DNA of 64,000 nucleotides. Source: a virus. Taxonomy: Duplodnaviria; Caudoviricetes. The position numbers and the translations under genes are program-made. Position 1 is the stretch's first letter, and every line of letters starts with the position of its first letter. This document shows positions 16,001-38,097 of this stretch, piece by piece. The DNA lies in the IMG/VR virus record IMGVR_UViG_2799112225_000003, positions 2,968 to 66,967 of that record; one strand, 5' to 3'. The notes under the pieces were generated by a model, which ran no database searches, had not been told where the DNA came from, and saw only the letters and a list, made by a program, of their open reading frames with translations.

Positions 16001-17238
16001 CCTGCAGCGGGGTCCAGCCCCATCGCTTCGGAGGGACGCACGGGCTTCGCTTCATCAGTGAGAGCGAGGTTGCCCGTGCTGAACTCGCGCGCGTCCGGTG
16101 CTGCCGCCTCGAAGTCCACGCCATCGGTAGGCGCCGTGGGCATCACATCGAGCGGCGGCCGGCTGGCCGGGTCGCGCGGATCAAAGGTGCGCTGCACGCT
16201 GGCCAAGCCGCCCGCAACCGCGGGAATCTCGCTGACCGCCGCGGGTGCCTGGCCCTGGTCCACTGGCAACAGCGAGAGCTGCTCGCCGGGCGTGCGCCCT
16301 GCACTGCCGAGCGCCGCCTGATTCGGGGCGTGCTGACCAGTGGCGCCATGCAGCAGCGCAGCCCCGCCGCCCATGGCACCGCCCGCGAGCAACCCGGCGG
16401 CGGCGGCCTTGCCGACACCTTCACCGACGGGCTTGTCCAGCGCGAGGTTCTGCAGCGCCTGCTCGGACATCGACTGCGGCAGTTCTTCGAGCACGCCCTC
16501 GGACAGGATGCCGGCGCCAACCTGGCGCGCGAGCGAACGCTGTGAGGCGGGCCCGGCGCCGTGGATGGCTCCCTGCGCCAGCATCGTGTCGGCATCGCCG
16601 ATACCGAGGCGTTGCGCCAGGCGGCCACCGAGTGCGCCAAAGCCAGCAGTAGCGGCGCCGGTCGCGGCGGACAGAGCCGCCTGCTTCGGGGTGAGCAACC
16701 CGTCTTGCGTCTCTTGGCGGATCTGCTCGGCCTGCGAGCCCGCCCCCAGCACGCCTTCACCGATGGCGCCAGCGATGGCCGGCGCCACCTTGGGCGCCAA
16801 CTTGAGCAAGCCGCGCGCCACGCCCGCGCCGCCGAGCATCTGCGGGATCGACTCGCCCACGCTGGTCGCGATGGTGCTGGGGTTCTCCAGCATGGTCTTG
16901 GCCGTGTCGACGAAGCCGTCGGCCGCCTGCACCTTGCGGTTGGCGCCCTTCTGCGCATCGGAGTACTGGTCGTCGAGGAACTTCTGCGCGTCCTCGAAGC
17001 GAACTCCTGCCTGCTCCAGAGCTTTGCCAGCGTGGCCGCCCGTCACGATGTCGGCCAAGCCGACGACGCTCTGCGGCAGGCCAACTGCGCCCTTCAGCGC
17101 AGTGACCCCGACATCCTTTGCGGTGCCGAGCACGGTGCGCTTCGCATCGGGCGGATCGAGCTCACCCGAAAACGGGGTGAGGTTGTGGGGTGGGGTATCG
17201 AGTTGCCCGTCGAAGGGCTTGAGGGTTTCGCCAGCCAT
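4045..17238 (-). CDS. Giant polyvalent/DarB-like virion-ejected protein (4397 aa): PPase-like, N6-adenine MTase, SNF2 helicase, zincin-like peptidase, ART-like and PLxRFG domains
   Basis: GNYKMGH...HYGYVKG...DGDHVDVFVGP; EPAVGTGNF and NPPF; VGAGKT, DELH, ATGTP, QREGRIIR; HEVLGHHG; FFHGT...GRGVY...EIVAFEPTQVKSAIGN; YAPLSRFGRY. Confidence 0.92.
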   Translation of the reverse strand: MAGETLKPFDGQLDTPPHNLTPFSGELDPPDAKRTVLGTAKDVGVTALKGAVGLPQSVVGLADIVTGGHAGKALEQAGVRFEDAQKFLDDQYSDAQKGANRKVQAADGFVDTAKTMLENPSTIATSVGESIPQMLGGAGVARGLLKLAPKVAPAIAGAIGEGVLGAGSQAEQIRQETQDGLLTPKQAALSAATGAATAGFGALGGRLAQRLGIGDADTMLAQGAIHGAGPASQRSLARQVGAGILSEGVLEELPQSMSEQALQNLALDKPVGEGVGKAAAAGLLAGGAMGGGAALLHGATGQHAPNQAALGSAGRTPGEQLSLLPVDQGQAPAAVSEIPAVAGGLASVQRTFDPRDPASRPPLDVMPTAPTDGVDFEAAAPDAREFSTGNLALTDEAKPVRPSEAMGLDPAAGPLSTAAALAVDGGAHDVMNAAAQLAAQTEAADGKDAKPAAASPAPAAAPVANVNAETGEISEQAQDREAELRARLEFVRQQAASNGWDQRLIAERDSARAELAALAPAAPTAPNSVQEGISQARDRRAAPESAPQPKGETLGTQADQAQQAVAQQAPAGAEATTAAPVTAAAALTPSPAAPAVPNAKREKAVRRVEEGSAWFLSRDKAQAFVETSGLTETHEVVPDNRRFIVQAKDAQPAQAAQPQAAASADQLADLRRRRAEAVPGTPLRRDIDNDIAQIEREQSSAARRPEAAAPVDAAANEAATSPQNDLPEPSQAQKEAGNYKMGHLSGDEVQGLRISVENPQGSTRRGTSPDGTEWSNTMAAHYGYVKGSEAADGDHVDVFVGPAAATAPTVYVVDQINGDGTYDEAKALFGFHSEAEAVAAYKGSYDAGWKVGPVTAMSVDEFKAGLADGRFKKPLATMRRKDEPAAPSIPSPAQEPKQRRGVLAKKDEAEERARASYFQPGNVVKSYGGFDRVVAYRPGVNGGLWSVDVRAVRQVAQGQFEDIPGEQQRTHSTQPSAVDLRRGPVTRLNEPKPSASAPQPVDAHSTGDDNGRNAGAVQTERLPAADQGGDARDAGAGDRDRQPVDARVAEAGEGADRGERVPAGSEGTGGGRTEGVQRSGEPAPRAPRDLGDVRPERQPAHAVADPATAEASPKPELDQPSDHTLDAEDIGKGGLTKKYRDNIAAIRILKALAGESRKATPEERKQIARYVGWGALKGVFDPQNKQWSKEFAELRELLTDAEYKAARASVLNAHYTSPVVVDGIYQALERMGFSAGRVLEPAVGTGNFFGLMPASMRKRSQLHGVELDPLTSQIAAALYPSAKVAQATGFQDFQAPAEYFDLAVGNPPFGSEPIVDDDRSPYSGFSIHNYFFAKSIDKLRPGGLLAMVVSHNFLDAKNEATRQWIADRANLVAAVRLPNTTFKTNAGTEVVTDIVVFQKKTESERANGLGDAAWVKAGQQTLANPKTGEATQHNVSSYFLSNPEAVLGTPTAAGSMYRAGEYTVEPSGDLAQQLKTWADALPEDVYQPVERTHEREAADVVVPDGVKVGSFYVDDSGRVLMRGPDSLGNRRAEPWTPPNVKAAERMKGMVGLRDALRAQMRLERSPDSTDGQIEQHRRELNRLYDGFQSKYGYLNDPTNRRIFLDDTESALVLALEFDYDRGVSKAVAEREDIEPRAPKAVKADIFARRVMFPPADNIKVSNAKDALLASLNYKGRLDADYMATLYDKPPAQIVSELGDVVYADPVNGLVMADEYLSGDVKTKLAEAEAAARDDPALRRNVEALRKVIPADKRPSEIHAAMGAAFIPQELFQQFAKEVTGADARVTYLRATGQWLVDYTSQPNPALNTAKWGISRMTAQNIFMRTMAGQGVVVTDTIRDPNGGTRTVVLEKETEAAREKQTAMKAEWQRWLWSDPERADRVAGIYNDKMNRIVVRRFDGSHMTFPGMSPAMELLPHQKDAVWRALQQRQILLDHVVGAGKTFEVVAAIMEMRRLGIARKPIVTVPNHLTLQWRSEFSRLYPAANVLAATPDDFTKGNREKFFSKIVTGDWDAVIIGHSSLKRIALPAETEKAVLEEQITELADSIGEMKRARGDRNIVRDMESIKARLEARMKQRVQALGERDKVVTFDELGVDAFAIDELHEFKNLFYNSTMERVPGMGNPGGSDKAFDLFVKAQYLFDALGDKAPLMGATGTPVSNSLVEMFNMQRFLQYPTLKAQGLHVFDAWAKQFGSVESLYEVSPSGTGYRQASRFAKFKNLPALMGMYQTFADTVTLDDLKAQEEARGRTFPVPQVAGGRPVNVVAKRSPEVANFMGVPQLDIQGGRVQFGFNPAAGERAVIEKSEDGNSWRAETRVPQPDEKEIRQLIGSAKTEEDAKLLVVEAALSPKIKVDPKSILGQFADLKRLTKETKGKVNALSLTGQANKAGLDFRLIDPSAPDFAGSKINLAVERMLGTYQKWTADRGTQLVFCDLSVPLSARSGFGSKERRVYVRDEGALVHKKGTMHTVRGHEDLPFFVVKEGGKDAKAFTIYDAATGLRVHAGLPAKGIATDWAAQALNDDSRRQRWIDARDRIGDLQQDEIDDYNNANEIDTEETESISLADIAGMSGATAFSVYDDIKGKLMARGVPEREIAFIHDYNTPAAKDKLFKAVNRGDIRFLLGSTPKMGAGTNVQERLVGLHHIDAPWRPSDLEQREGRIIRRGNALYARDPDGFEVEIYRYATEQTYDTRRWQILEHKARGIEQLRKYDGTLNEIDDIEGEAANAADMKAAASGDPLILEETRLRNDVRRLESLQASHADETAAMVRQARDQQRFAQDWGPKELDTFRALQAAAEAHPVPKDGFAGLTVAGKTITDREAAIKAVKRGIDRVFVSGGQEEFQYRGVTFMLEGTPDHVELNSPTGGLDSYRPARDVLPSAAGILTRFGNYINRLPAHIVDLDAKIAEAKQSAVQLREQAGKPFAQAKELEVAREAHRRVQRRLVAKGPDIPLNQRPALQKAMAEQRQQLTEQGFGDALEEFGGPADDAQFRRDGTEMLSPEAARAMRALLPNYSPQARAQAVASVTKTVEAIRAGWGNGPEVIVAFDMGDPVVPEAARRADLKQRSGGARGAPEGFYYRGKAYLMASRLPTANDAARVLFHEVLGHHGLRGQFGKGLDEVLNQIGTMRRADVDAKIEEYGLRGVNKLDRRAAAEEVLAEMAQTHPELHFVRRAIAAIRTWLRQHVPGFSNLRMTDDEIVRNFILPARRFVEQGGPDGGPGDGLRFSRGEAGPATANSLGAPIASNDEGVANFWHWYSGQDGSLKDTRSGTQGSGGAVGGAAAGGPGRDGGAPGRLGPVDAQGRPLVFFHGTRDDFAAFDTEHPNRKDVGWLGRGVYGASDATDANYYAGAKRGQGGPRVMPLYFAVTNPYVATPEIKARLKRATQAQVDRFTSNLRAMGHDGVTLTAEDGSLEIVAFEPTQVKSAIGNSGAFDGGNPDIRFSRSTVQDFAKKATAELNKTFTAPGKLSWWHKTVGTMYNLAERSPAFKAVFDSAQGFVDDVSFYANDAAELAPKLLPKLETWRDIKKAPVAAADNAAVAKPVFEGTLTWARDEQGKPVPVQSLIDAAAELTADQKAQRLLRNGQIDERMLKAWQGMPLESYEKAINTRFESRMLQPGVVWTDAELRSMFKLSDDQIALYHEFRETTDRSLDTMARADMLRFVGDDAKAMRGMVMDAPDVQAAAVLLRDHLVQLANEQPDRATQILNTANGIIDRADKVRDLQARGYAPLSRFGRYSVDVVDAAGERQYFGLFETAREANNMATKMREEFGDATVTQGTLSEEAFKLFAGVTPETLELFGNALGLDSTGDSAQDQAFQEYLRLTKTNRSAMRRLIHRKGIAGFSEDVGRVLASFIYSNARQTAAGLHMGDLGEAVQAIPKEQGELKDAAVRLAEYVKNPQEEAQAVRGLLFAQYLGGSVASAFVNMTQPVAVTLPWLSQYGGARAAAAQIGRAAKNIATRGFQYEPDLAAALKRAEDEGTVSPQEVHQLMAQARGASSLRSGDGTRGGELRAMGQNALSRLSLAWGKLFGAAEQVNRRVTFVAAYRTAKAQGMEDPAGFARKAITETQFLYSKANKMEWGRGAIGGTLMTFKTYSVAYLELLHRMYTQGGPEGKRAALLALGMLMLMGGAGGLPFEEDLEDAVDALAQMLGYNFSTKKARQDFLESLLPKPIAQFIDKGVSGLPGAPLDVSGRLGMGNLIPGTGLLLEKTSHSRDLLEIAGPAGDFASRILSGGRSVLTGDVGAGLLEMSPAAVRNAAKGADMAATGMYRDAKGYKVLDTNTLEATLKTIGFQPNSVATIQEANGINQGAKAFYNLRAQEIRAMWAQGIFEGDQQKVQDARDQVAAWNRKNPEQPMLVRIPDVMRRVREMQKSKDQRIADTAPKAMRVQMREDVARARAEGV
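7266..7472 (-). CDS. Candidate nested gene (68 aa) in +1 frame of giant gene
   Basis: MEASKTPEAARKDLEELLAELPPVGPAEMAAHLGDSDPLMRKAARSYF looks helical/HEAT-like while the main frame is a Gly-rich linker; RBS weak. Confidence 0.4.
   Translation of the reverse strand: MEASKTPEAARKDLEELLAELPPVGPAEMAAHLGDSDPLMRKAARSYFSTARATTSPPSIPSTQTEKT
13929..14210 (-). CDS. Nested gene (93 aa) in +1 frame of giant gene
   Basis: AGGAG 7 nt before ATG; protein-like sequence (IANRWMLGWPKRVKALI...HLARHEISEMYGL) while the main frame is low-complexity G/R/D/A. Confidence 0.75.
   Translation of the reverse strand: MDEMQELYRPNDYPPPIKEAMRAMPALATEIANRWMLGWPKRVKALIEANEFLPALKEQEEAERRAYSDPGNRHLARHEISEMYGLSDSPPTL
15477..15578 (-). 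CDS. Candidate nested basic micro-protein (33 aa) in +1 frame of giant gene
   Basis: AAAGGAGA then TTG start; MALKPIKPSKQSRNKRRQEQKRLQQRQSQPQQR. Confidence 0.45.
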   Translation of the reverse strand: MALKPIKPSKQSRNKRRQEQKRLQQRQSQPQQR

Positions 17239-26968: not shown

Positions 26969-27547
26969 TCAGACGGTGAGGCTCAGGCGATAGCCGATGT
27001 CGTAGGTATCGCCGTTCTGGAACACGCGCGCGGCGGCGTACTTCGTGGCCGACACCAGCGCGCCGGTAGTGCCGCCGCGCGTGTTGTTCGTCAGCATGGC
27101 CGCGCCGGTCACGTTGAGCTGGCCGGCCGTGGCGATGGTGACCGTTGCAACGGCCGCCATGTTGTCGATGGAGCCGGTATTCGTGTTCGCCGAGGTCCAT
27201 GCCGGGCGGGTTGGGCTGGTATAGCCCTCAGTGAGGCTGACGATTTCGCTCGCGCTCGCCGCGAAGCTGGCGGCCGTCCAGTTGTCGGCCGGAGCCGCCG
27301 CGCCGCTGAACAGCGCCAGGAAGTAGCCCGCCGGCTTGGCCGTGCTGCCCAGCGCCACGTTCAGGATGTGTGCCAGCCCTTCGACGACGATTTTGTTCTT
27401 GGTGCGGCTCCACTCGCCACCGTTGATGCGGTCGAAGTACTCGCCGCGTGCGAGCACGCCCTGACGGGGGAAGTAGATGCCCTGCTCGGTGACATCGTAG
27501 GTTTCGCGGCTCAGGTCCGCAGCCAGTTCTTTGCGCAGCGTCGTCAT
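26969..27547 (-). CDS. Tail fibre/appendage subunit (192 aa)
   Basis: KNKIVVEGLAHILNVALG...YFLALF...EGYTSPTRPAW; beta-rich structural composition. Confidence 0.75.
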   Translation of the reverse strand: MTTLRKELAADLSRETYDVTEQGIYFPRQGVLARGEYFDRINGGEWSRTKNKIVVEGLAHILNVALGSTAKPAGYFLALFSGAAAPADNWTAASFAASASEIVSLTEGYTSPTRPAWTSANTNTGSIDNMAAVATVTIATAGQLNVTGAAMLTNNTRGGTTGALVSATKYAAARVFQNGDTYDIGYRLSLTV

Positions 27548-27586
27548 AGGAAGCTCCAGTGGTCCTATGCCGCACTCCTGCGCAGC
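27545..27586 (-). promoter_or_regulatory. Translational control element: AGGA-loop hairpin plus start-occluding hairpin
   Basis: mRNA GCUGCGC-AGGA-GUGCGGC then CAUAGGA...UCCUAUG stem containing the AUG. Confidence 0.65.
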
Positions 27587-27618
27587 GAATGATTCCCGGA
27601 TGCCCGGGGTGGAAGGCC

Positions 27619-28806
27619 TCAGACTACAGCGGTCAACAGGCGGCGGCCAAACACTACAGAGGTACCAGACCGCCCAGTGATGCCCTTCAGCACACCCGCC
27701 TGCAGCTCTACGAGCGCACCCGACGCGGTGCCGGCGACGTAGCCGTTCTCCGCCAACCAGACCGCCGCATCGCTGCCGCCTGCGGTGAGATCGCCGCCGA
27801 GAGCATCTGGGGACGCGAGGATGGCGCTACCCGGCACTGGCGCGCGCCCGCCCTTTCTCTCTGCCGTGAACTCGGACGGCGCGCTGCCACGCAGGAAGAC
27901 GACGTGATCGACCTGCCCGACCCATACCCCGCCGTCGACGGGCTGCACGAAGGTGATGCGCTGCGGCATCTGCACGAACCCGTGCCGCTCGTCGTGCAGG
28001 TGGTAGGCCAGCGCCTCGGACCAGCGCAGCACGTTGCCGCGGGCGGTCAGCAATCGGCCACGCCAGTACGCCAGGAACTGGCCCGTCGGCATCGGCGACA
28101 GATGGCGGAACTGCGCCGGCGCACCAAGCTGCGGCAGCAACGGCAGGTGAATCGACGCGGTACCGGCCAGCCAGTCCCCCGCGCGCAGCAGCTCGCCGCC
28201 GTCGTGCCGCGTCAGGTACAGGCGCACCCCGGTGAGCGACGGGTCGAGCCAGATGGGCAGCGCCACCTCGAGCGCGCCGCCCGCACCGACTTCGACGGTT
28301 GCGAGCTCCGACGTGGCCGACTCCTGCGAGCCGCGCAGCCACGCCAAGGCCGCACCGTAGGTGCCAGGCTCCAGCGCGCCGGTGCCGGCCGTCAGCAACG
28401 GCGCTGGTGGCGTCTCCAGCGTCAGTCGCTGTGCCGCCCTGCCGTCGTAGGTGAACAGGCCAGCAGGTCCACCAGCGCAGACGAGGCTGTTGAGCACCAC
28501 GTGGCTCGCCCCCTCGCCCACGGTGGCAAGCTCCTCATGCGACCAGTCCACCGGGTTGATCTTGACCCAGCGCCCGGCAAGCGTCCCGAAGGTGTCTCGA
28601 TGCAGCGGGCTCTGCCACACGTCGCGGAACCGTGCCGCGCTCACCAGGCGCTCGCCGACGCGCACCGACGCCTTTCCGGCTGGGGTGATGTCCACGTTCA
28701 CGGCGTCGCGCACATAGAGCCGCGCCGCTTCGCCGCCGCGCTGCAGGGCCGCATCCTCCGAGACGTTGTTGATGCCGGCCAGCGGCATCAGGGATGTGTC
28801 GGACAT
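27619..28806 (-). CDS. Tail tubular/nozzle-like virion protein (395 aa)
   Basis: Start MSDTSLMPLAGINNV with AAGGAG RBS; GINN...VRDAVNVDIT N-terminus resembles podovirus tail proteins. Confidence 0.75.
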   Translation of the reverse strand: MSDTSLMPLAGINNVSEDAALQRGGEAARLYVRDAVNVDITPAGKASVRVGERLVSAARFRDVWQSPLHRDTFGTLAGRWVKINPVDWSHEELATVGEGASHVVLNSLVCAGGPAGLFTYDGRAAQRLTLETPPAPLLTAGTGALEPGTYGAALAWLRGSQESATSELATVEVGAGGALEVALPIWLDPSLTGVRLYLTRHDGGELLRAGDWLAGTASIHLPLLPQLGAPAQFRHLSPMPTGQFLAYWRGRLLTARGNVLRWSEALAYHLHDERHGFVQMPQRITFVQPVDGGVWVGQVDHVVFLRGSAPSEFTAERKGGRAPVPGSAILASPDALGGDLTAGGSDAAVWLAENGYVAGTASGALVELQAGVLKGITGRSGTSVVFGRRLLTAVV

Positions 28807-31800
28807 TAGAAGGCTCCTTTTCGGTACTGATCGGCGTTGCCGTCGGGCCGGATGAAGTGGACGGCCAGCTTGGCATTGGGCACGCCTGCCGGCGCAGCGT
28901 CGATCCCCACAGGAGCCAGCGTGCGCGCGGCCGGGCCCGGCGGCACATGGGCATTGCGCACGTGCATGCGCGCGGCGAAGTTCTCGGGGTCGTACTCGCT
29001 CGCGAACGCCTCGAAGCCCGGAGGCTCCAGACCCCGGATGCGCAGCGAGGTCCAGGCGGTGCCGAACGAGGTAGCGGCGATGCCGGGCGGCATGGTCGGC
29101 ATCGGCGGGCCCACGTGCAGCGACTGCCACTGGTACGGCGGCTCGCCGCGCGAGCCTCCCATCGCGAGCGCGTTGAAGCCCGTGAGCTGGAATATCCGAT
29201 GCAGCAACGACACCCAGGTCGTGCCGAAATCCGGCGGCGCGAGGCCCACAGGCCGGACGGTCTGCGGGCCGAGGTACGGGCCGCGCGCCACCGCTGGCTG
29301 CCCGAACAGCTGCATATCGGCTCCACCGAACTGCTTCACGAACTGCGTGCCGTCGCCCAGCACCACCCAGCCCATGCGGTAGGCCTGCATGCCCGCCGGC
29401 TCCAGGTAGCGACGGTGCAGCTGCACCGAGGGAGCGCCGAGCAGCGCGGTGTTGCCCACCGTGGTGGGGGAAAGGATGCCGCGGTAGGTGCGCACCGAGT
29501 GCTGCCCGAACCGGGCGCCGGGCCCGTATTCCAGCGTCTGGCCCACGTAGTGCAGGTTGCCGACCGGGTGGTTGCGGATGGCCTGCGCTGGTGCCTCGAC
29601 CACGGCGTAGATGGTGTGCGGTGTGATGCGCGCCGGCGAAGGCTCGAACACCTGCACGTCCGGCCACTCGGCCACCGTGAGGAAGCGCCTCTTGAGGGCC
29701 ACCATCGGCTCGCCGTAGCCATCGATCTTGATGCCCGCGTCGACCATGACACCATTGCTGCGCACCGTCGCGTCGCCCAGAGGCGGCGCGGTGATGCCCG
29801 GCACGTAGAGGACGTACTGGTTCAGCCCTGGCTTGCCAACCTCGCTCTCGGACGCGACCTCCTGGTCCTGAATGATCCACTGCGTGGCGTACGGGGGGGC
29901 GCCTGCTCGGGTGACCACCAGCTTGTCGCCCACGCGCATGAAGTTGTTGCCCGGTACCGTGATGGTCTGCTTGCGGTCGGCGATCTTGGCCTGGCCGAAG
30001 AGCTGGGTGGCTGCGCCGTCTGGCGTCACCGGGCGGTACTGCAGCCGCAGGAAGGCGTTGCCGAACTCCTCGGCGTTCCAGCCGAAGCCGCGCACCTCGG
30101 GGGTCACGTTGTGCATGCGCGGCTCGCCGAAGAAGTCCCGGTGCGTCCACCTGGGCAGGATGATGTTGAAGTGGATGGAGAGCGCGGCCAGGCCGACGCG
30201 CGACATGTCGTCGCCCCTGGGCTCGACGTAGCGGGTGTACAGCTTGACCTCGGGCAGCGGCACATCGGGCGGCTGAATGGCGTAGCGCGACTCGATGTCC
30301 AGCGTCCGGATCGCGAAGTCGATGAACGCGGTGCCGTAGGCGGCGGAGTCGATGTTGCCGATGCGTGGGTAGTAGCGCCGCGTGTTCTCCAGCGCGGCCA
30401 CGCCGAACAGCTGCGAGTCTGCGCCCGTCGGGGCGACCACGCGGGCCGCGTTGAAGACCGCATTCCAGCTGAGCACCGGTGGCGGCTCGATCCCCTCGAG
30501 CGGCAGCAACCGCACACCGTAGGCCACCAGCCCCGCGGGCGTCGTACCCGGATAGCCAGGCGGCGTCATGCCCTCCGGCGCGATCACGCGGGCGTTGTTG
30601 AAGACCAGCGGATCGCCGGTGCGCGGCGGCGCCACACCCAGCGCGCCCACCACGCGGTTGCGGTTCTCGACGGCCGTCCACTGGGGCCATGCCGGCGGAT
30701 TGAGCCCGTCGCTCGGGTCGTAGTTCTGCACCACGAACTGCCGCAGGTTGTAGACCTGCGGGCGGCCCCAGCGGTATTGCTCCTGCACGTTCGTCTCGAA
30801 CCCGGGCGGCAGCACCAAGGTGAGGTGATTGCGGATCGACGTTGAGCCCCAGACCTCCCGGAAGCCCTGCGGCGCCACGGTCTGCGACACGGGGATGATC
30901 CGCGTTCCGAAGGCCGAGGAATCCCATCCGGAGGGCGTGATGTAGCGTGTGCCGCCGACGTTCGGCCGCCCGACAGCATCAAGGAACGCGCCCGATGGCG
31001 CGAGCAGCCGCGTGCCCTGGCTGATCCAGGCCGTACCGAAGCCTGGCGTGGGGATGCCCGCGTTGAGCTGCACGTACTGCCGGTCATGGCTGACCCGGTT
31101 GGTGCTGGAGAAGCCGGTGGCCACCAGCCCAGTCGGCAGCAGGTAGCGCGTATACAGCCACACCGTCGAGCTCGTGCCCAGCACTGGCGGCACGATGTTC
31201 CCGGCCGCGATGTAGCGGTTGCGGTTGATGATGGTCGGGTTGCCGCCAGCCATCGCATCGAAGCCGCCGGGAAAGAGGCGCCGGTTCTTCAGCACCACCG
31301 CGCTGGCGCCGAAGGCGGACTGGTTCACCCCGGAGGGTGCGACCGCCCGCCGGCCGTAGGCCACCAACGCCGCGCCGAAGGTCAGTTGGCTCGGGATGCC
31401 CGTGGGCCGCAGCGCGCCCGCCGCGTTGCGCACCTGGTGCGCGCCCATGGCCAGGCTGTCGATGCCGGCAGGCGCCGCATAGGTCAGGTAGTTCTGGATC
31501 GTGGCCGCGCCGAAGCTGCAGGAGTCCCAGCCCGTGAGCGGGATGTATTTGTCCTCGGACGGCAGCGTCCAGAGCCCGTCGCGCACGCCCACGGCAGGCG
31601 TGTACGCCGGCTTCCCCACCCAACCCGCATTGATCGTCCAGCGCGGCGGCGCGTACTGGTAGGGAAAGATTGCGTAGGTGTCGCCGAAGGCCAGCGGCGT
31701 GAAGCCCAGCGGCCGAACGAACTGCTGCTGCGTGACGAAGGCCGTGCCCGTCGCCTCCGACAGGAAGCCCGGCGGGTTGACGTAGGCGCGCTGCTGGTCC

Positions 31801-32132
31801 CAGGTGACCGACAGCGAGGCTCCGATGGTACGGATGTAGACCGGCTTCCCGACCCACGAGGCCGCGATGCTGTACTGCGGCGGCCGATAGTTGAAGACCT
31901 TCGTGAGCGCGAAGGTCGTGCCCCACTGCGTCTGCTGGCCGGCGGTTGCGCCGGCGACGAGTTGCTGCCCGATGACCGCGGGCGTGCCCACGCCGCCCTC
32001 GGCGCCGGCCGGCTGGTAGATCCACTGGGTGGACGTGACCCAGGTGCCAAGGATGACGCGCGCGGGCCCTCGGTAGGTCGGTGCCCCGACCCACGAAACG
32101 TTCAGTGGGCTGGTCGGGGGCGTGTACGGCAT
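28806..32132 (-). CDS. Tail fibre-like protein with many ~22-25 aa P.G(F/I).....FG repeats (1108 aa)
   Basis: Repetitive beta-strand units; tail operon position. Confidence 0.8.
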   Translation of the reverse strand: MPYTPPTSPLNVSWVGAPTYRGPARVILGTWVTSTQWIYQPAGAEGGVGTPAVIGQQLVAGATAGQQTQWGTTFALTKVFNYRPPQYSIAASWVGKPVYIRTIGASLSVTWDQQRAYVNPPGFLSEATGTAFVTQQQFVRPLGFTPLAFGDTYAIFPYQYAPPRWTINAGWVGKPAYTPAVGVRDGLWTLPSEDKYIPLTGWDSCSFGAATIQNYLTYAAPAGIDSLAMGAHQVRNAAGALRPTGIPSQLTFGAALVAYGRRAVAPSGVNQSAFGASAVVLKNRRLFPGGFDAMAGGNPTIINRNRYIAAGNIVPPVLGTSSTVWLYTRYLLPTGLVATGFSSTNRVSHDRQYVQLNAGIPTPGFGTAWISQGTRLLAPSGAFLDAVGRPNVGGTRYITPSGWDSSAFGTRIIPVSQTVAPQGFREVWGSTSIRNHLTLVLPPGFETNVQEQYRWGRPQVYNLRQFVVQNYDPSDGLNPPAWPQWTAVENRNRVVGALGVAPPRTGDPLVFNNARVIAPEGMTPPGYPGTTPAGLVAYGVRLLPLEGIEPPPVLSWNAVFNAARVVAPTGADSQLFGVAALENTRRYYPRIGNIDSAAYGTAFIDFAIRTLDIESRYAIQPPDVPLPEVKLYTRYVEPRGDDMSRVGLAALSIHFNIILPRWTHRDFFGEPRMHNVTPEVRGFGWNAEEFGNAFLRLQYRPVTPDGAATQLFGQAKIADRKQTITVPGNNFMRVGDKLVVTRAGAPPYATQWIIQDQEVASESEVGKPGLNQYVLYVPGITAPPLGDATVRSNGVMVDAGIKIDGYGEPMVALKRRFLTVAEWPDVQVFEPSPARITPHTIYAVVEAPAQAIRNHPVGNLHYVGQTLEYGPGARFGQHSVRTYRGILSPTTVGNTALLGAPSVQLHRRYLEPAGMQAYRMGWVVLGDGTQFVKQFGGADMQLFGQPAVARGPYLGPQTVRPVGLAPPDFGTTWVSLLHRIFQLTGFNALAMGGSRGEPPYQWQSLHVGPPMPTMPPGIAATSFGTAWTSLRIRGLEPPGFEAFASEYDPENFAARMHVRNAHVPPGPAARTLAPVGIDAAPAGVPNAKLAVHFIRPDGNADQYRKGAF

Positions 32133-32134
32133 CG

Positions 32135-33382
32135 CTAGACCGGCTGCGGCTCCGTCTGAGCGTAGAACAGGTCGTTCAGCAGTTCACCCGCAGCCGTCAT
32201 GAACTGGACATCGAAAGGTCCAATGTCCGGCACGCGCAGGTCGTAGTTGCCGGTGCTCGCGTCGGAGGTTGTCTGGCCCACCAGTTCACCATCGCTGCGG
32301 CGGTGCGCTCGCACAACCCGCGCGACCGGGTTGTTGCTGATGTCTCGCACTGTCCCGGTGATTTTGTACGGAGTGTTGTAGGTGATCACCAAGTTGTTCG
32401 GACTGGAGGAGTTGTTCCCCCAAAGCAAGTGCCGAAAGGCGTTTGGCTGCGTCGCGTAGGGGGCCTTTGTCGAAATCTTGAATCGCGACATGGTCCGCGA
32501 GGGGCTGGTGGAACCAACACCGTGCCGGAGATAGACCGTGTCCTCGCTGGGATCTGGATCGACCACCAGCGACCAACCGCTGCTGATGGCACCGCCCGAC
32601 GTAATGGCCGTGTAATCGGTGATGCTGTTGGTCGCTGGATCGAACTCCCCAATGAATGGCGACGTGCCGAAGGAGAAGATGAACCTGTTCGCCGTCGGGT
32701 GACGCACGATGGTCCTCGCGGAATTGGTTGCAGCTGCGTACTTTGAGCTGGCTGTGTAGGAGTACGTCCTCGCCGCCGTGGTCGGGTTGTGAACTGCGAG
32801 ATATGGGGAGCTTGCCGACTGCACGAGCAAATATGCGTTGTCACCAGAGAACTCACACGAGTACGTCGAGGCAGAGCCGCCTGCTGGCGCATCGACATAG
32901 GCCCAGGTCGAAGTGTTGTAGATCCGGACGTAGGGGCTGGTGTCGTGGGTGATGGCGAACTTGGTGCCGTCTGGCGAGAACGCCATGGACCGCAGAGTCC
33001 CCAAACCCGTCGTGGAAACCGTCACCAGTGCGTGATTGCTGCGATTGAACACATACAAGAACGGGCTGTTACCGCCCACCGCGTAGAAGTTCGCGCCCAC
33101 AGCGCAGCACGTCATGCTTCCTGCGAAGGCCGCAGATGGGGTCACCGAGCCAGCGAGGGTATTCAAGTCAGGGTAGTAGCGAAAAGCGCCCGAACCAGAA
33201 TTCCCGCTCTGCATCACGCCACCGAGGTATTCAGGGCCGATGGCGATATTTGCCGAGGTGCTGAGCGATGGGTACTCGAACAACGCGCTGAAGAAGGGCA
33301 TTGGTTCGAGGCCCTGCCGCAAGTCCAGCGAGCGCATCCCGATGATTTCCCCGACGATAGCTCCGACCATGCGCTTAGGCAT
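32135..33382 (-). CDS. Beta-propeller protein, candidate receptor-binding tip (415 aa)
   Basis: WD40-like blades (MAFSPDGTKFAI; repeated SPF/SPY), C-terminal ITGTVRD...GNYDL domain; AAGGAGG RBS; less GC3-biased. Confidence 0.75.
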   Translation of the reverse strand: MPKRMVGAIVGEIIGMRSLDLRQGLEPMPFFSALFEYPSLSTSANIAIGPEYLGGVMQSGNSGSGAFRYYPDLNTLAGSVTPSAAFAGSMTCCAVGANFYAVGGNSPFLYVFNRSNHALVTVSTTGLGTLRSMAFSPDGTKFAITHDTSPYVRIYNTSTWAYVDAPAGGSASTYSCEFSGDNAYLLVQSASSPYLAVHNPTTAARTYSYTASSKYAAATNSARTIVRHPTANRFIFSFGTSPFIGEFDPATNSITDYTAITSGGAISSGWSLVVDPDPSEDTVYLRHGVGSTSPSRTMSRFKISTKAPYATQPNAFRHLLWGNNSSSPNNLVITYNTPYKITGTVRDISNNPVARVVRAHRRSDGELVGQTTSDASTGNYDLRVPDIGPFDVQFMTAAGELLNDLFYAQTEPQPV

Positions 33383-33704
33383 CGGCAGCCTCCTTAAGCA
33401 CGCCCAGTGGCGTCTCGTTCGGCCAGTAGCCCTTCGCCGCGTGCCAGGCGCTGTAATCGGCCATCACCACGTCGTCACCGCGCTGGCCGGCATAGCGCAG
33501 CGCGTAATCAATGGCCCATTCCTGACTGTCGCGCCCGGGTGGGCACGGCGCCAGCTCGTGCACGAACATCTGGAACGGCGGCAGCGCGCCCACCATGCGC
33601 CAGTTGATGGCCGGCACCGCCGCCGGCGTGAGTTCGACGGGCTTCGGGGCAATGCCTTCCACGCCGATGATGATCGGCGGCGGCTTGCTGGCAGCAACAC
33701 TCAT
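33375..33704 (-). CDS. Hypothetical phage protein (109 aa)
   Basis: Coupled both sides; WHAAKGYWPNETPLG. Confidence 0.7.
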   Translation of the reverse strand: MSVAASKPPPIIIGVEGIAPKPVELTPAAVPAINWRMVGALPPFQMFVHELAPCPPGRDSQEWAIDYALRYAGQRGDDVVMADYSAWHAAKGYWPNETPLGVLKEAADA

Positions 33705-34333
33705 TCGCTGAGTTCCTTCAACTTGCGCGCAACCCGCGCGCGCTCTTCCTTGGTTAGGGAGTCGAGCATGTCCAGCACCTGGTCTACGAGTCGAACCCCA
33801 TGGGGGTCTTTCTTGCTGGTGCCGACGCCGGTCCAGAGTTCCAGGTTCTCGGGGCGGTTGTCGTCGCGCTTGCCGTTCTTGTGGTGCACGCGCTCATGGG
33901 GCTTCAGGGGGCGGCTCAGTTGCTGCTCCATCACAAGACGATGCTGCATCACCCACTTGCCGTCGCTCTTCTGCAAGACGTAGCCATTCGCGTGCTTGTG
34001 TTGAGTGCCCTCGCTGTGGCTTCGTATCGCGCCAGTCCGCACACGTCCCTTCATGGCGCAACTGCGAGAGCAGAACCGTCGATCGGTCTTCCCGTGAGGC
34101 CGCTCGAACGAAGCACCACAGGCTTCACAAGTGCACGTGCGGTCCGCCTTCTTAGCAACGTTCCCGCACTCGACCGAGCAGCATCGCTGCGCCCTGTACT
34201 TGCGCGCGAAAGATGACCCGCAAACTTCGCATGCAGCTTGTCTCTCCCACTTCCGGGAGCTGTACCAGCACTCGGTCGAGCAGAACCGCTTCTGCTGGCC
34301 CGCGAGCTGTTTGTCGCAGTGTTCACATTGCAT
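33701..34333 (-). CDS. HNH homing endonuclease with N-terminal Zn-finger repeats
   Basis: Three CxxC...(F/C)CSxxC repeats; QHRLVME...VHHKNGKRDDNRPENLELW; GAGGAGG RBS. Confidence 0.9.
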   Translation of the reverse strand: MQCEHCDKQLAGQQKRFCSTECWYSSRKWERQAACEVCGSSFARKYRAQRCCSVECGNVAKKADRTCTCEACGASFERPHGKTDRRFCSRSCAMKGRVRTGAIRSHSEGTQHKHANGYVLQKSDGKWVMQHRLVMEQQLSRPLKPHERVHHKNGKRDDNRPENLELWTGVGTSKKDPHGVRLVDQVLDMLDSLTKEERARVARKLKELSE

Positions 34334-34394
34334 GGACTCCTCCTCATTTAGGACAGGTGAATTCTCCGATGCAACGCAACCTGGGACAATGGTC

Positions 34395-34802
34395 CTAAAC
34401 TTTGAATATTTTATTGGTCCCGTTGTCCCAAGTCACAATAATGTCGCCTCCATTAGGAGTGATCGGCAGGCCGGTGGCCGTGTCGATGTATGCGATCAGC
34501 GGCGAGGTGGCCTCGGTGCCGGTGTCGCGGTAGATCACGATGGCCTCGATGCTCGCGCCAGACACGGCCGTGAACGTCACGTCCGCGCCGTCGGCCGCGC
34601 CACCCGTGGTGGTCTTCGCGGTCAGCGTCACCGGCCCGGCGATGCGCGCCGAGATCGGGATGTCCGCGAGGTACTGGTGGATGGCCGTCTGCGGCGTGTA
34701 GGCGCCGGTGTCCACCAGGAGCACCTTGATAGTGTCGGTTGCCCAGTTGAGCTGGGCTTCGAGGAAGCGCTGCCGCGCAGCGTCATACAGGGTGTTTGCC
34801 AT
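34395..34802 (-). CDS. Virion structural/fibre subunit (135 aa)
   Basis: MANTLY...TIKVLLVD...DGADVTF...LIAYID...PNGGDIIVTW. Confidence 0.8.
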   Translation of the reverse strand: MANTLYDAARQRFLEAQLNWATDTIKVLLVDTGAYTPQTAIHQYLADIPISARIAGPVTLTAKTTTGGAADGADVTFTAVSGASIEAIVIYRDTGTEATSPLIAYIDTATGLPITPNGGDIIVTWDNGTNKIFKV

Positions 34803-35004
34803 TTGCGGCCTCTTCAGCGGAAGAAGCGCACTCCTGCGCGCCGGTGGTTGCGCGCCCGGCTGGGCGCTGGATGGGTGTGTTCGCGTCGGCGCAGATGGCG
34901 AGACGCGCGCGCTGCCCCGACTTCTGCGAGAGCGTCACCAGCGTGTTGCCGATGCGCACCGTCTCGCCGACGCGGAGCTCTACGTGAACGAGGGTGGTGC
35001 TCAT
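34783..35004 (-). CDS. CsrA/RsmA-like RNA-binding protein (73 aa)
   Basis: LRVGETVRIGNTLVTLSQKSGQRARLAICADANTPIQR aligns by eye with CsrA [39 protein letters not shown]; ATGA overlap with upstream gene. Confidence 0.7.
   Translation of the reverse strand: MSTTLVHVELRVGETVRIGNTLVTLSQKSGQRARLAICADANTPIQRPAGRATTGAQECASSAEEAANGKHPV
34809..34841 (-). promoter_or_regulatory. Translational control element: AGGA-loop hairpin plus SD-occluding hairpin
   Basis: mRNA GCGCGC-AGGA-GUGCGC then CUUCUUC-CGCU-GAAGAGG stem pairing the SD. Confidence 0.65.
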
Positions 35005-35696
35005 GGCAGGATCAGCACGTTGTGGTGTTGAACGTCCTCGCGCGTGATGCGGCGGAGATCGCTGTCGGGCATCGGCCCGAAGTAGGCCGTGAAACCCGCC
35101 TCTGCCCTGTCCGAGCGCGCGGGGTCGAACGCTTCGCTGTCGGGGATGCTGAAAGCCTTGTGCAGCGCCCACAGCAGGAGGTGCTCGTGGTGCGTCTTGT
35201 GGATCTCGGGGGTGCTACGCACCACTGGCGGCGGCGAGCCGGCCGGCGGCAGCGCCATCGGCTCCAGGGGCGTGCGGTAGCACTCGAGCACGAGCACATC
35301 GCCGGCATCGAAGGCTCCAACCACGCGCAAGGAGGTGTCGTCCTGGATCGCGAAGCACGCCGGCTCCGCGCGCTCCCGCCAGCCAGGAACCTCGGCATCC
35401 AGCCATTCGCGCGAAACGAGCCTGAGCTCGCGCGGTCGGTCGCCGTTGGCGGGCTGGAGGCGCAGGCTGATGAGCTCGAACGCCGCCGCGTGGAGCGGAT
35501 ACACAGCCTGGCCTGACGCGAGCGCGATGCGGCACACGGCGGGGTTCGCATCCTCGCGCAGCAGCCTGCCGCGCACGGCGGCCTGCTGCTCGGCGTCGTT
35601 CAGCCAGTCCACAACATCGGCATCCGCCCAGAAATAGGGCTGCCGCTTGTCGTTGGACAGGACGCGGAAGCGTCGGATCAAATCCTGCAGGGTCAT
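35001..35696 (-). CDS. Head-tail adaptor protein (231 aa)
   Basis: MTLQDLIRRFR...PYFWADADVVDWLNDA...PEIHKTHHEHLLLWALHKAF; position after head genes. Confidence 0.75.
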   Translation of the reverse strand: MTLQDLIRRFRVLSNDKRQPYFWADADVVDWLNDAEQQAAVRGRLLREDANPAVCRIALASGQAVYPLHAAAFELISLRLQPANGDRPRELRLVSREWLDAEVPGWRERAEPACFAIQDDTSLRVVGAFDAGDVLVLECYRTPLEPMALPPAGSPPPVVRSTPEIHKTHHEHLLLWALHKAFSIPDSEAFDPARSDRAEAGFTAYFGPMPDSDLRRITREDVQHHNVLILP

Positions 35697-36752: not shown

Positions 36753-38045
36753 TCAGCCGCGCGGCTTGATGATGCGGACAGCGGTGTCGAGCACCGTCAC
36801 GCCGTGGTCGGTGAACTGGGTGGTGTCGCCGTGGTCCACCGCGAAGCGGATCTTCGACATGCCCAGGATCGCGCCGATCAGGATTTCCATCTTGTCGCCG
36901 TGATCGCCGTCCTTCTCGCTCCAGAAGAACGGGATACCGCTCTTCTCGGAGCTACCGAACGCCTGCGCCAGCGCCTGGCCGCCGAGCAGCAGCGCGCGGT
37001 CCACCGCGAAGGTGGTACCGAACGCAGCCGGCACCTTCACGGTGGATTCCACCTCGCTGTCGTAGGCGGCGCAGTAAGCCAGGTCGTCGCCCGCGTAGAA
37101 GCGGATCGCCTTGGGCATCTTCACGATGAGGATGCCGTTCCAGAGGCCCACATCGCCGAGGAACAGCGGGTGATCCTTCGCCAGCCGGGCGCGCGCGTAG
37201 GCGTTGGCCTGGAAGCTGCGGAAGTCCGGGTTCGTGGCGAAGCCGCTGTACTGGGCCGGCGACACCAGCGCGACGCGGATCGGGCTGTCGGTGGCGGCGA
37301 GGTCACCCTCGAACTCCACCGGGGGCGGCGGCAGCGGGATCTGGTCCATCCACGAGCGCAGCGAGTCCACCGCGTCCATGGTGAACTGGTCGGTCGTGGC
37401 GATGACCAGCTCGCCGGCGTTCGCCTTCACCTCGCCCACCGCACCGCCGCCGGCCACCAGGTGCCGGTTGCGCGTCGGCGCCTTCACCCGGTTCACCATG
37501 ATTTCCTTGAACTTCGGGTGCGCTGCGACCGGCACGCGCCATTCGATCTTGTTGTCGTGGTAGCCGCGCGCGCCAGCGAGGTGAACGAGCATCGACTGGT
37601 CGATGTAGTCGTTCATCAGCTGCTGCGCCTTCGGCCGGCCCAGGCGGCGCAGGTCGTAGGGGCTGCGGATCTGCGTCATGGTGTTGCCCATGTCCACCGG
37701 GAAACGCGCCTGGTTGATGCGCAGCCGGTCTTCCGAGAACGACATGCCCACGCCCTTGCCCTCGGCGTACTCGCTGCCCATGATTGGGTAGCCGCCGATG
37801 GGGTTGTCGAGGTGGAAGGTGATCTCGTCACCCTTGTTCTTGCCCAGATCGTCGGCACGCACGATGGGCATCGTGGGCTTCGATTGGCGCTTCGCACCCG
37901 CGATGGCGTTCTCGATGGTGGGCATCTTGCCCGTCAGGCGGTTCAGCGTCGTGTTGCGCTGCATGCAGGTGTGGAAGACCCCTACCGCCTGCTGGATCAT
38001 GGCGCCGGTGGCGCCAGATGGGACGTTGGTTTTGCTTTCGGACAC
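36753..38045 (-). CDS. Major capsid protein (N4 gp56/DUF4043-like; 430 aa)
   Basis: GTG start with GAAGGAGG RBS; DLGKNKGDEITF, LRINQAR, HPLFLGDVGLWNGILI, RALLLGGQALA. Confidence 0.88.
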   Translation of the reverse strand: MSESKTNVPSGATGAMIQQAVGVFHTCMQRNTTLNRLTGKMPTIENAIAGAKRQSKPTMPIVRADDLGKNKGDEITFHLDNPIGGYPIMGSEYAEGKGVGMSFSEDRLRINQARFPVDMGNTMTQIRSPYDLRRLGRPKAQQLMNDYIDQSMLVHLAGARGYHDNKIEWRVPVAAHPKFKEIMVNRVKAPTRNRHLVAGGGAVGEVKANAGELVIATTDQFTMDAVDSLRSWMDQIPLPPPPVEFEGDLAATDSPIRVALVSPAQYSGFATNPDFRSFQANAYARARLAKDHPLFLGDVGLWNGILIVKMPKAIRFYAGDDLAYCAAYDSEVESTVKVPAAFGTTFAVDRALLLGGQALAQAFGSSEKSGIPFFWSEKDGDHGDKMEILIGAILGMSKIRFAVDHGDTTQFTDHGVTVLDTAVRIIKPRG

Positions 38046-38097
38046 GGTGTCCTCCTTCAATGGGATGGGCTTCGCCTCCCGGCGATGCCTGGCGCAA

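Follow-up and report, generated by a model that had tools for sequence, protein, structure and literature searches.

What does a prophage do with a CsrA-like protein of its own, encoded among its virion genes, and which RNAs might such a protein read? The question is raised by a window of 64,000 nucleotides (nt), bases 2968-66967 of the 66,967-base IMG/VR provirus record IMGVR_UViG_2799112225_000003 (65.7% G+C), in which a 73-amino-acid (aa) CsrA-like open reading frame (ORF) is accompanied by two RNA hairpins in the leaders of two virion genes. Phage CsrA homologues are widespread and routinely annotated, with host-directed roles that are guessed in the literature, at least in those sections of it that deal with the gene. 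In such sections, 'CsrA-like regulator' genes are treated as morons (PMC9144972, PMC10269572, PMC8310193), phage CsrA genes are put forward as possible suppressors of host CRISPR-Cas (PMC8450108), and phage CsrA homologues have been catalogued by Sobrero and Valverde (PMC7366521). The corresponding section of PMC11879866 reports smaller plaques upon knock-down of PTXU04 gp28, and states that what CsrA does in a phage life cycle was untested before 2025.

An earlier note on this DNA, made from the sequence alone, had proposed that the ORF and the hairpins form a Csr-like translational circuit, and that no description of such a circuit was known. The second statement holds for the cis-operators: no paper on the hairpin, its letters or phage-internal targets was found in a search that left subscription journals and supplements outside its scope. 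It does not hold for the gene family, which is already annotated as 'CsrA-like regulator' and catalogued, so that only the cis-operator circuit is new. Here, we summarize the comparative evidence on this circuit. We consider it rather probable that this prophage encodes a diverged CsrA-fold RNA-binding protein with the hairpins in the prophage's own leaders as its operators, and that it opens the start regions of virion genes.

The CsrA-like protein

The 73-aa ORF begins with an ATG that overlaps the stop codon of the preceding adaptor gene as ATGA, and its own stop codon lies 20 nt inside the gene of a 135-aa tail protein (target gene 1). Its product matches the PHROG family phrog_8397, 'CsrA-like regulator' (E 3.9e-18), has its nearest named homologue in Variovorax paradoxus (86% identity) and is only ~45% identical to the small CsrA-like protein of Pseudomonas phage F116. 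An exhaustive homologue search returned 74 cluster representatives (E up to 1e-3). The profile of 79 aligned family members matches the RsmE structure 2jpp (E 4.6e-9) and eight more CsrA/RsmA sequences (1e-7 to 2.6e-3), with the CsrA/RsmA entries 2bti, 5z38, 1y00 and 1vpz at 1e-7 to 3e-7. In the AlphaFold (AF2) model, a core of approximately residues 1-50 is predicted with confidence (predicted local distance difference test, pLDDT, 86-96). The 12 best distinct PDB entries that Foldseek finds with this model are all CsrA, RsmA or RsmE, at a root-mean-square deviation of 0.6-1.6 Å over 43-47 residues and a template modelling score (target) of 0.56-0.79. CsrA proteins form an interlocked homodimer with two RNA-binding faces, and the first and last strands are unpaired in the monomer model, as expected if they pair across a dimer. 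The CsrA fold with its five-stranded β core, which the earlier note had read from an alignment, and homology to CsrA are thereby established for the 73-aa protein. The C-terminal α-helix that the note found lacking is indeed absent from the AF2 model, where residues 51-73 have a pLDDT of 49-54 and are modelled as disordered.

This tail (approximately residues 51-73) is read-through of the leader RNA of the next gene, and the 'AQECA' within it is the translated hairpin. A reading of 'AQECA' as a peptide motif was rejected: the same nucleotides are also found as AHECA, and as ARMSA in another frame, and copies of the motif past the stop codon and in an intergenic spacer (copy B, below) likewise rule it out. 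The most conserved residues of the family are G13, G19, K28-S29-G30, R34-L35 and A39. A genome-wide search with the Pfam CsrA model gave 15.9 bits for the 73-aa ORF and no second, canonical CsrA gene in the provirus, unlike F116.

Two leader hairpins in the window

The 13-mer GCGCAGGAGTGCG occurs exactly twice in the window (27571-27583 and 34827-34839), both times on the minus strand, which is the coding strand. Its last base lies 24 nt (ATG at 27547) and 25 nt (ATG at 34802) upstream of a start codon. It forms the top of a 7-base-pair (bp) hairpin with an A-N-G-A tetraloop (core GCGCANGAGUGC). Hairpin A (stem GGCGCGC/GUGCGCU, G.U pairs included) sits within the 3' end of the CsrA-like ORF, ahead of the 135-aa gene, and hairpin B (stem GCUGCGC/GUGCGGC) lies in an intergenic spacer ahead of the gene of a 192-aa protein (target gene 2); both have an AGGA tetraloop. 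With RNAfold, both short leaders fold as the AGGA-loop hairpin followed by a second hairpin, and longer sequence contexts give competing folds of both. The positions, the strand, the spacing and the pair of adjacent hairpins sharing a base are all as the earlier note had described them.

The exact repeat of the 13-mer is not significant by itself, because 340 13-mers are repeated on one strand of the window, and two or more matches at ≤1 mismatch turn up in 17 of 100 shuffles; it is the comparative data, not the in-window repeat, that exclude chance. A covariance model scan of the window finds only the two hairpins (32 and 31 bits; next best 15.4). No Rfam family reaches its gathering score anywhere in the window, and the stretch 27400-35100 has no match at E up to 5 either. 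A decoy small RNA (sRNA) with many GGA hairpins was found neither with Rfam nor with the covariance model, which matches the two leader hairpins only. Ribosomes reading the 73-aa ORF would traverse both hairpins at site A before they stop inside the target gene. As site A lies inside the CsrA-like ORF, translational coupling and self-regulation are both possible.

The 135-aa protein (phrog_644) resembles the Bxb1 gp31 'tail wing arm' (PDB 9d93, E 4e-14), and the 192-aa protein (phrog_8123) a phage 'Structural protein' chain (PDB 26la_U, E 4.9e-13). These matches agree with the 'fibre-type' label that the earlier note gave to both genes as far as tail or structural proteins go; an identity as high-copy fibres is unsupported. 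The 135-aa protein is unusually well conserved and occurs in many phages: its counterparts are 90-93% identical in Pseudomonas phages of the F116 type, 87% in a phage of Shewanella and 35-63% across hundreds of mycobacteriophages. The neighbours of its gene are only ~45-70% identical to their F116 counterparts.

Conservation and covariation of the hairpin

Relatives were collected with a peptide of the CsrA-like protein that lies far from the motif, which yielded 55 viral loci and, with F116 and the window, 57 sources of 752 kb in total. The loci share the fetch peptide and therefore give no power for co-evolution of loop length and protein residues. In this set (duplicates retained), the core GCGCANGAGTGC has 76 copies on the coding strand and none on the opposite strand, and twelve permuted control patterns have 0-3 copies each. 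F116 carries the identical 13-mer at both orthologous places, together with a third copy just upstream of the next gene; one of the F116 copies stands at the distance of a Shine-Dalgarno (SD) sequence from the start. Where the motif is translated, three different frames are used; elsewhere it is outside any ORF, often past the stop codon of the CsrA-like gene, and most copies are located outside any upstream ORF.

The stem covaries, as a conserved RNA hairpin should if the earlier note was right about it. Its three outer base pairs change together (CG, UG, GC or AU at the first, similar at the next two), and 92% of the cells of the 7-bp stem are paired, against 78% in shuffles. Double changes occupy 52 cells where 16.1 are expected, a number reached in none of 500 shuffles, and register-slid controls are only 12-63% paired. 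The four inner pairs (core GCGC/GUGC) are invariant through the selection of the copies and are uninformative on covariation. All three outer pairs are formed in 40 of the 59 distinct copies; among the nine copies with none or one of them are those of the 'third copy' type, where motif and start codon overlap. The second base of the loop, the sixth of the motif, is G in 39 distinct copies; the others have U (13), A (6) or C (1). Loop and upper stem are near-invariant among phages with 40-50% protein identity, which suggests a sequence-specific reader.

Some relatives contain tandem pairs of hairpins in one leader, 30-34 nt apart (L037 3946-4015; L147 15712-15789), an arrangement that would suit a dimer with two RNA-binding faces. 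One 14-base variant of the motif was also sought in viral contigs, with 85 instances in 80 stored loci and no control pattern scanned: 18 have a CsrA-like ORF just upstream and 4 lie in loci with one elsewhere, and the other 63, without a CsrA-like ORF, mostly resembled chance matches in unrelated genes and carry little weight. In the window, an HNH gene stands where close relatives have their third hairpin copy, and it has also taken the place of the opening codons of the gene that follows (phrog_11163). The counterpart region with the third copy is L003 10585-10725, and the relatives' copy stands at +619. The phrog_11163 gene now begins at an ATG that overlaps the HNH stop codon; the altered region takes in 33701..34333 and 34334..34394.

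Gene and hairpin occur together

A separate set of 80 viral loci was fetched with the 135-aa target protein alone, 78 of them with enough upstream sequence. Within these 78, a CsrA-like ORF within 900 nt upstream is accompanied by the leader motif in 55 loci; 18 have neither, three the motif only and two the ORF only. Over the whole of the 80 loci, gene and hairpin are both present in 58 and both absent in 20, with one locus of each discordant kind. The gene-only locus has a hairpin with a G-C variant of the G.U pair, and the motif-only contig ends before the place that the gene has in a close relative. L090 and L119 have the gene in another context, at a distance of 3.7 and 1.9 kb upstream, and the hairpin still precedes the 135-aa gene. 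The co-occurrence that the earlier note asked about is therefore there: the CsrA-like gene and the hairpin are either both retained or both missing. Shewanella phage Y11 (62.8 kb) is an example of loss or absence, with neither a CsrA-like gene nor an exact copy of the core; its core matches at ≤2 mismatches are at control level, and its adaptor gene adjoins the 135-aa gene. Phages with another gene order lend the link independent support. The CsrA-like gene of Bcep22, GP4, PEp14, Parlo and SJM3 stands ahead of the capsid gene, whose leader is of the same kind, with a variant hairpin and a matching complement.

In a 42% G+C relative (L145 8146-9001), the CsrA-like gene is still followed by the hairpin leader and the opening three codons of the 135-aa gene (M-A-N-stop). 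Then come ~650 bp and an intact 135-aa gene with a new, hairpin-less leader, which resembles an insertion at the very beginning of the gene. In L126 (8899-9001), CCAACC-UAAU-GGUUGG stands instead of the usual motif, which could be replacement or loss of the operator.

Hairpin and closed start region compete

In most exact copies, an SD-preceded ATG lies +32 to +54 nt from the first base of the motif, and the hairpin sits 20-40 nt ahead of the start of tail or capsid genes; the ORFs opened by these ATGs encode proteins of 135 aa, 192 aa or ~370 aa (major capsid). A further helix closes the start region, and it comes in two versions.

In the window and its clade, this helix is local. The second hairpin of leader A pairs an anti-SD segment, GCUUCUUC, with the SD, GAAGAGGC (CUUCUUC/GAAGAGG over the SD), and the first 2-3 bases of the anti-SD double as the outer 3' bases of hairpin A. 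In leader B, the second hairpin (CAUAGGA/UCCUAUG) includes the AUG, carries the SD GGAG in its loop and has the base C27569 in common with hairpin B. An A-U pair of the latter second hairpin is G.U in F116, and L014 and L017 have different 7-bp stems at its place. Equivalent anti-SD or anti-AUG segments with other sequences are present in 30 distinct leaders, so that the two-hairpin 'design' pointed out in the earlier note does recur in relatives. In the window clade, the variants are GCUUCUUC/GAAGAGGC, GCUCCA/UGGAGC, CCAUGAC/GUCAUGG, CAUAGGA/UCCUAUG, CCUUGGA/UCCAAGG and GCCUUGC/GCAAGGC. The second hairpin starts in the last 1-3 bases of the 3' arm of the first, and its sequence varies while its place is kept. 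A long-range helix between motif and start is at most 5 bp in this clade, no better than controls.

In capsid-type leaders, it is the loop and the 3' arm of the hairpin that are complementary to the SD-AUG stretch or to the AUG itself. Of 54 leaders, 17 can pair motif and SD-AUG stretch over at least 7 contiguous bp, and 14 of these are among the 22 capsid leaders; the figure for control start regions is 12 of 665. Compensatory changes preserve it: in capsid-type leaders, CAUGAGUGC goes with GCACUCAUG, CAAGAGUGC with GCACUCUU, and CAGGAGUGC with GCACUCC(U), and in variant subfamilies, GGAUGUGC goes with GCACAUCC (Bcep22) and GGAGUGUG with CACACUCC (GP4). The PEp14 and SJM3 leaders have 10-13 bp of long-range pairing. 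Both alternative helices of a two-fold switch thus have support from covariation, the hairpin by its covarying outer pairs and the capsid-type long-range helix by its compensatory changes. In both versions of the leader, hairpin and closed start region compete for the same bases. Minimum free energy folds had also offered a CUGCGC complement downstream of both start codons; it is absent in the F116 135-aa gene and coincides with conserved Leu-Arg codons, and was taken as a coding constraint.

A proposed translational switch and its alternatives

The hairpin is probably the docking site of the CsrA-like protein, to judge from the comparisons above, and the whole is most likely a phage-internal translational switch. 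The operator would consist of the 7-bp stem (core GCGC/GUGC) with its A-N-G-A tetraloop (AGGA in the window), 24-25 nt upstream of the tail-gene start, and its 3' arm would be common to, or abut, the segment that pairs with the SD or AUG, giving the leader two competing folds. Produced from the late operon that also holds target gene 1, with its own gene just upstream of that target, the protein would capture the hairpin fold and remove bases from the closing helix, and translation of the virion gene would go up, as happens with Mu Com on mom. With site A in its own ORF, the protein might in addition regulate how much of itself is made.

We favour activation, loosely, on the strength of folding models. 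Start-region accessibility was expressed as the unpaired probability averaged over positions -13 to +3. When the 7-bp hairpin is forced in 82 distinct leaders, this value rises in 66 and falls in 1, with group means going from 0.26 to 0.51 for capsid genes, from 0.30 to 0.58 for the 135-aa gene and from 0.38 to 0.50 for the 192-aa gene. Forcing costs ~4-5.5 kcal/mol, which a tight binder could pay, and a milder folding constraint gives the same direction. Leaders of the 135-aa gene are less accessible with the hairpin (0.30, n=28) than without it (0.46, n=19; Mann-Whitney p 5e-4), in samples that are not independent and are confounded by G+C. The activator that the earlier note had thought plausible thus fits these models. 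A wider version of the proposal, which we regard as possible and hold with some doubt, is that helix-less CsrA-fold proteins of F116-, Bcep22-, GP4-, PEp14-, Parlo- and SJM3-like podophages read A-N-G-A(N) on a GCGC/GUGC stem rather than GGA and switch capsid and tail genes on via the hairpin conformer, in a self-contained, host-Csr-independent control of assembly order or dose.

Several observations weigh against the operator model. The protein falls short of strict membership in the Pfam family CsrA (PF02599; 16.3 bits, E 0.0096, under the cut-off of 27). R44 of CsrA has an essential role; the terminal Arg to which the earlier note gave weight is present as R47 of the window protein, aligned with R44, and only 40 of the 79 family members have Arg there. 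GGA, the hallmark of CsrA sites and the element to which the note had pointed, is missing from 20 of the 59 distinct loops, where N is U, A or C, and what is conserved is A-N-G-A. The window's own leaders open little in the models (0.35 to 0.40 and 0.50 to 0.58), and folding them as single sequences gives unremarkable z-scores (-0.6 to -1.3). One locus, L126, truly breaks the co-occurrence, with the gene present and a UAAU loop in the hairpin of its 135-aa leader. The phages in which gene and hairpin co-occur are, moreover, related to one another: on a quick tree from the DNA of the 135-aa gene, the CsrA-like gene changes state no fewer than 8 times and the motif no fewer than 7, and the contrasts number 3 on supported branches, all concordant (sign test p 0.25), and 8 on all branches. 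A third factor, inherited along with both, could be the real binder. Finally, one CsrA peptide was found in virions of phage JC1, whose gene is treated as a moron in the section of PMC9144972 that covers it.

If the protein does bind the hairpin, it might still act as CsrA-type regulators commonly do. The commonest mode of CsrA and RsmE is repression, and the PDB relatives of the window protein are named 'translational repressor'. A dimer holding the upstream hairpin with one face and the SD (GGAG, also N-G-A-G) with the other would block the ribosome and cap the output of tail or capsid protein in proportion to the remaining virion components. The SD lies 15-35 nt from the hairpin, in leader B it is a GGAG in the loop of the second hairpin, and where the third copy in relatives overlaps the start codon of the next gene, binding should block initiation. 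Yet the leaders already hold conserved, covarying helices by which they close themselves and which a repressor would not need, and the hairpin and the closed fold are mutually exclusive, so that a stabilised hairpin opens the start region in the models. We therefore think classical repression unlikely, if the best placed of the alternatives to an opening of the start. We give a somewhat smaller chance still, and call improbable, a leader RNA that works without any phage protein, as an intrinsic attenuator, a switch operated by ribosomes or temperature, or a hairpin for processing or stability, with the CsrA-like protein as a 'moron' acting on host mRNAs or as a passenger of the virion. Both alternative folds could operate without a protein, ribosomes translating the 73-aa ORF traverse site A and could open it by coupling, and a role outside the leaders is how the literature sees these genes in the sections that concern them (PMC9144972, PMC8450108, PMC7366521). 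Against this stand the near-invariant loop and upper stem noted above, with the specific reader they suggest, the joint loss of gene and hairpin, and the location of most copies outside any upstream ORF. The moron part meets a further difficulty, as the hosts that were checked are without a Csr system whose targets could be exploited: no PF02599 match was obtained in the genomes of three hosts of related prophages (Variovorax paradoxus and two Acidovorax).

That the motif acts as DNA, serving a dimeric DNA-binding protein as operator or promoter, or else as an SD-like standby site or a mere chance repeat, we consider very improbable, and the DNA-level reading is already largely refuted. The GCGCA/TGCGC arms do form an inverted repeat, but a strand bias of 76 to 0 fits RNA and not DNA, and covariation that includes G.U pairs is a property of RNA. 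No promoter- or terminator-like pattern is present at copy A or B, and both functions were rejected. AGGAG resembles an SD and one F116 copy stands at SD distance, whereas 20 of 59 loops are not SD-like, for which reason a standby site or split ribosome-binding site was rejected as a general reading. Repeats of 13-mers are common in the window, and chance is nevertheless excluded by the conservation of this one at orthologous places.

Gene order around the hairpins

The prophage belongs to the F116/Bcep22 podophage group, and its tail-region DNA is ~72% identical to that of Pseudomonas phage F116 and its relatives. All virion genes of the window are on the minus strand (Table 1, in gene order).

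Table 1. Features of the virion module and the two hairpin leaders, in window coordinates
Feature	Position	Strand	Basis or remark
Terminase, portal, major head protein	36753..38060 (major head protein)	minus	First in virion gene order, then two small structural genes
Head-to-tail adaptor, 231 aa	35001..35696	minus	Pfam SU10_adaptor PF24175, E 2.1e-26; phrog_399
CsrA-like ORF, 73 aa	34783..35004	minus	phrog_8397, E 3.9e-18
Hairpin copy A, 7-bp stem and AGGA tetraloop	34825..34842	minus	Sequence, folding, covariance model 32 bits
Second hairpin A, anti-SD	34808..34827	minus	Sequence, RNAfold
Target gene 1, 135-aa tail accessory protein	34395..34802	minus	phrog_644; Bxb1 gp31-like
HNH homing-endonuclease gene	33701..34333	minus	Pfam HNH_3; PHROG HNH families; alignment with relative L003
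Further tail genes, then head-closure/nozzle-type gene	ending 27619	minus	Between HNH gene and 192-aa gene
Hairpin copy B, 7-bp stem and AGGA tetraloop	27569..27586	minus	Intergenic; covariance model 31 bits
Second hairpin B, over AUG	27545..27569	minus	Sequence, folding
Target gene 2, 192-aa virion structural protein	26969..27547	minus	phrog_8123, E 1.9e-82
More structural genes, then giant 4,397-aa ORF	4045..17238 (giant ORF)	minus	Virion module end

Two long ORFs of this module, 27619..30927 and 28806..32132 (minus), overlap. The match to head closure Hc3 (phrog_8040) covers only the C-terminal ~390 residues of the former, so its real gene probably starts near 28800, just past the end of the 1,108-aa gene. 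The Bcep22 counterpart (gp75) of the 4,397-aa giant ORF is annotated as a DarB-like antirestriction protein.

Implications

A conserved cis-operator in the leaders of its own virion genes would give this lineage of CsrA homologues a concrete and testable function. If the proposed switch exists, a widely annotated and unexplained phage gene would acquire a job in controlling the synthesis of virion proteins, and 'CsrA-like regulator' genes of this kind would be core regulators of morphogenesis rather than morons. Virion assembly would be ordered or dosed without the host Csr system, even in hosts that lack one. The protein would then be a natural CsrA fold with altered loop specificity, probably an activator that works via an RNA conformational switch, and protein and operator would make a compact orthogonal pair for engineered control of translation. 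Caution would also be due when such genes are read as 'morons' for virulence or host fitness in judging therapeutic phages.

Comparison with known systems

The CsrA, RsmA and RsmE systems (RsmE-hcnA, 2jpp; glgC) are the closest in kind: they have the same fold, with detectable homology, and their operator is likewise a short hairpin, rich in purines in its loop, that lies at the SD or upstream of it. The consensus of CsrA sites has A(N)GGA in the loop, and the AGGA loops of the window are the canonical CsrA loop. The phage protein differs in that it is without the C-terminal helix, lies below the Pfam cut-off and is variable at the equivalent of R44. Its family loop is A-N-G-A on a fixed GCGC/GUGC stem in which GGA is dispensable, and the targets are the phage's own virion genes. 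Complete Csr systems further have decoy sRNAs such as CsrB, RsmY or RsmZ, of which none was found in the window, and the hosts that were checked are without a Csr system.

Mu Com is a small protein that binds a hairpin beside an inhibitory stem hiding the mom start and thereby favours the open form. The likeness lies in a small phage protein and a hairpin next to a start-hiding stem. Com, however, is a zinc finger of unrelated fold, whereas here a CsrA fold is found with several operators per genome, and activation is read from folding models only. The operator hairpins of the MS2 and PP7 coat proteins, and the sites of T4 RegA, resemble the present ones in that a phage protein reads a short site at the start region and sets protein stoichiometry; these proteins are repressors of unrelated folds whose operators contain the start codon.

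Among phage genes, the window ORF is a member of the 'CsrA-like regulator' genes of F116-, Bcep22-, GP4- and PEp14-type podophages (phrog_8397; F116p47, Bcep22 gp54, JC1 gp47). It shares with F116p47 the position between adaptor and tail genes, and in Bcep22-type phages the CsrA-like gene stands before the capsid gene instead. The canonical CsrA of F116 (YP_164288), which is 55% identical to E. coli CsrA according to Table 3 of PMC7366521, and gp28 of PTXU04 are of the CsrA family and on phages too, but differ from the window gene in lineage and location. For gp28, the one phage csrA gene with a knock-down phenotype, membership was rejected, since it is a different gene of canonical type, located where the lysis operon ends and on the opposite strand.

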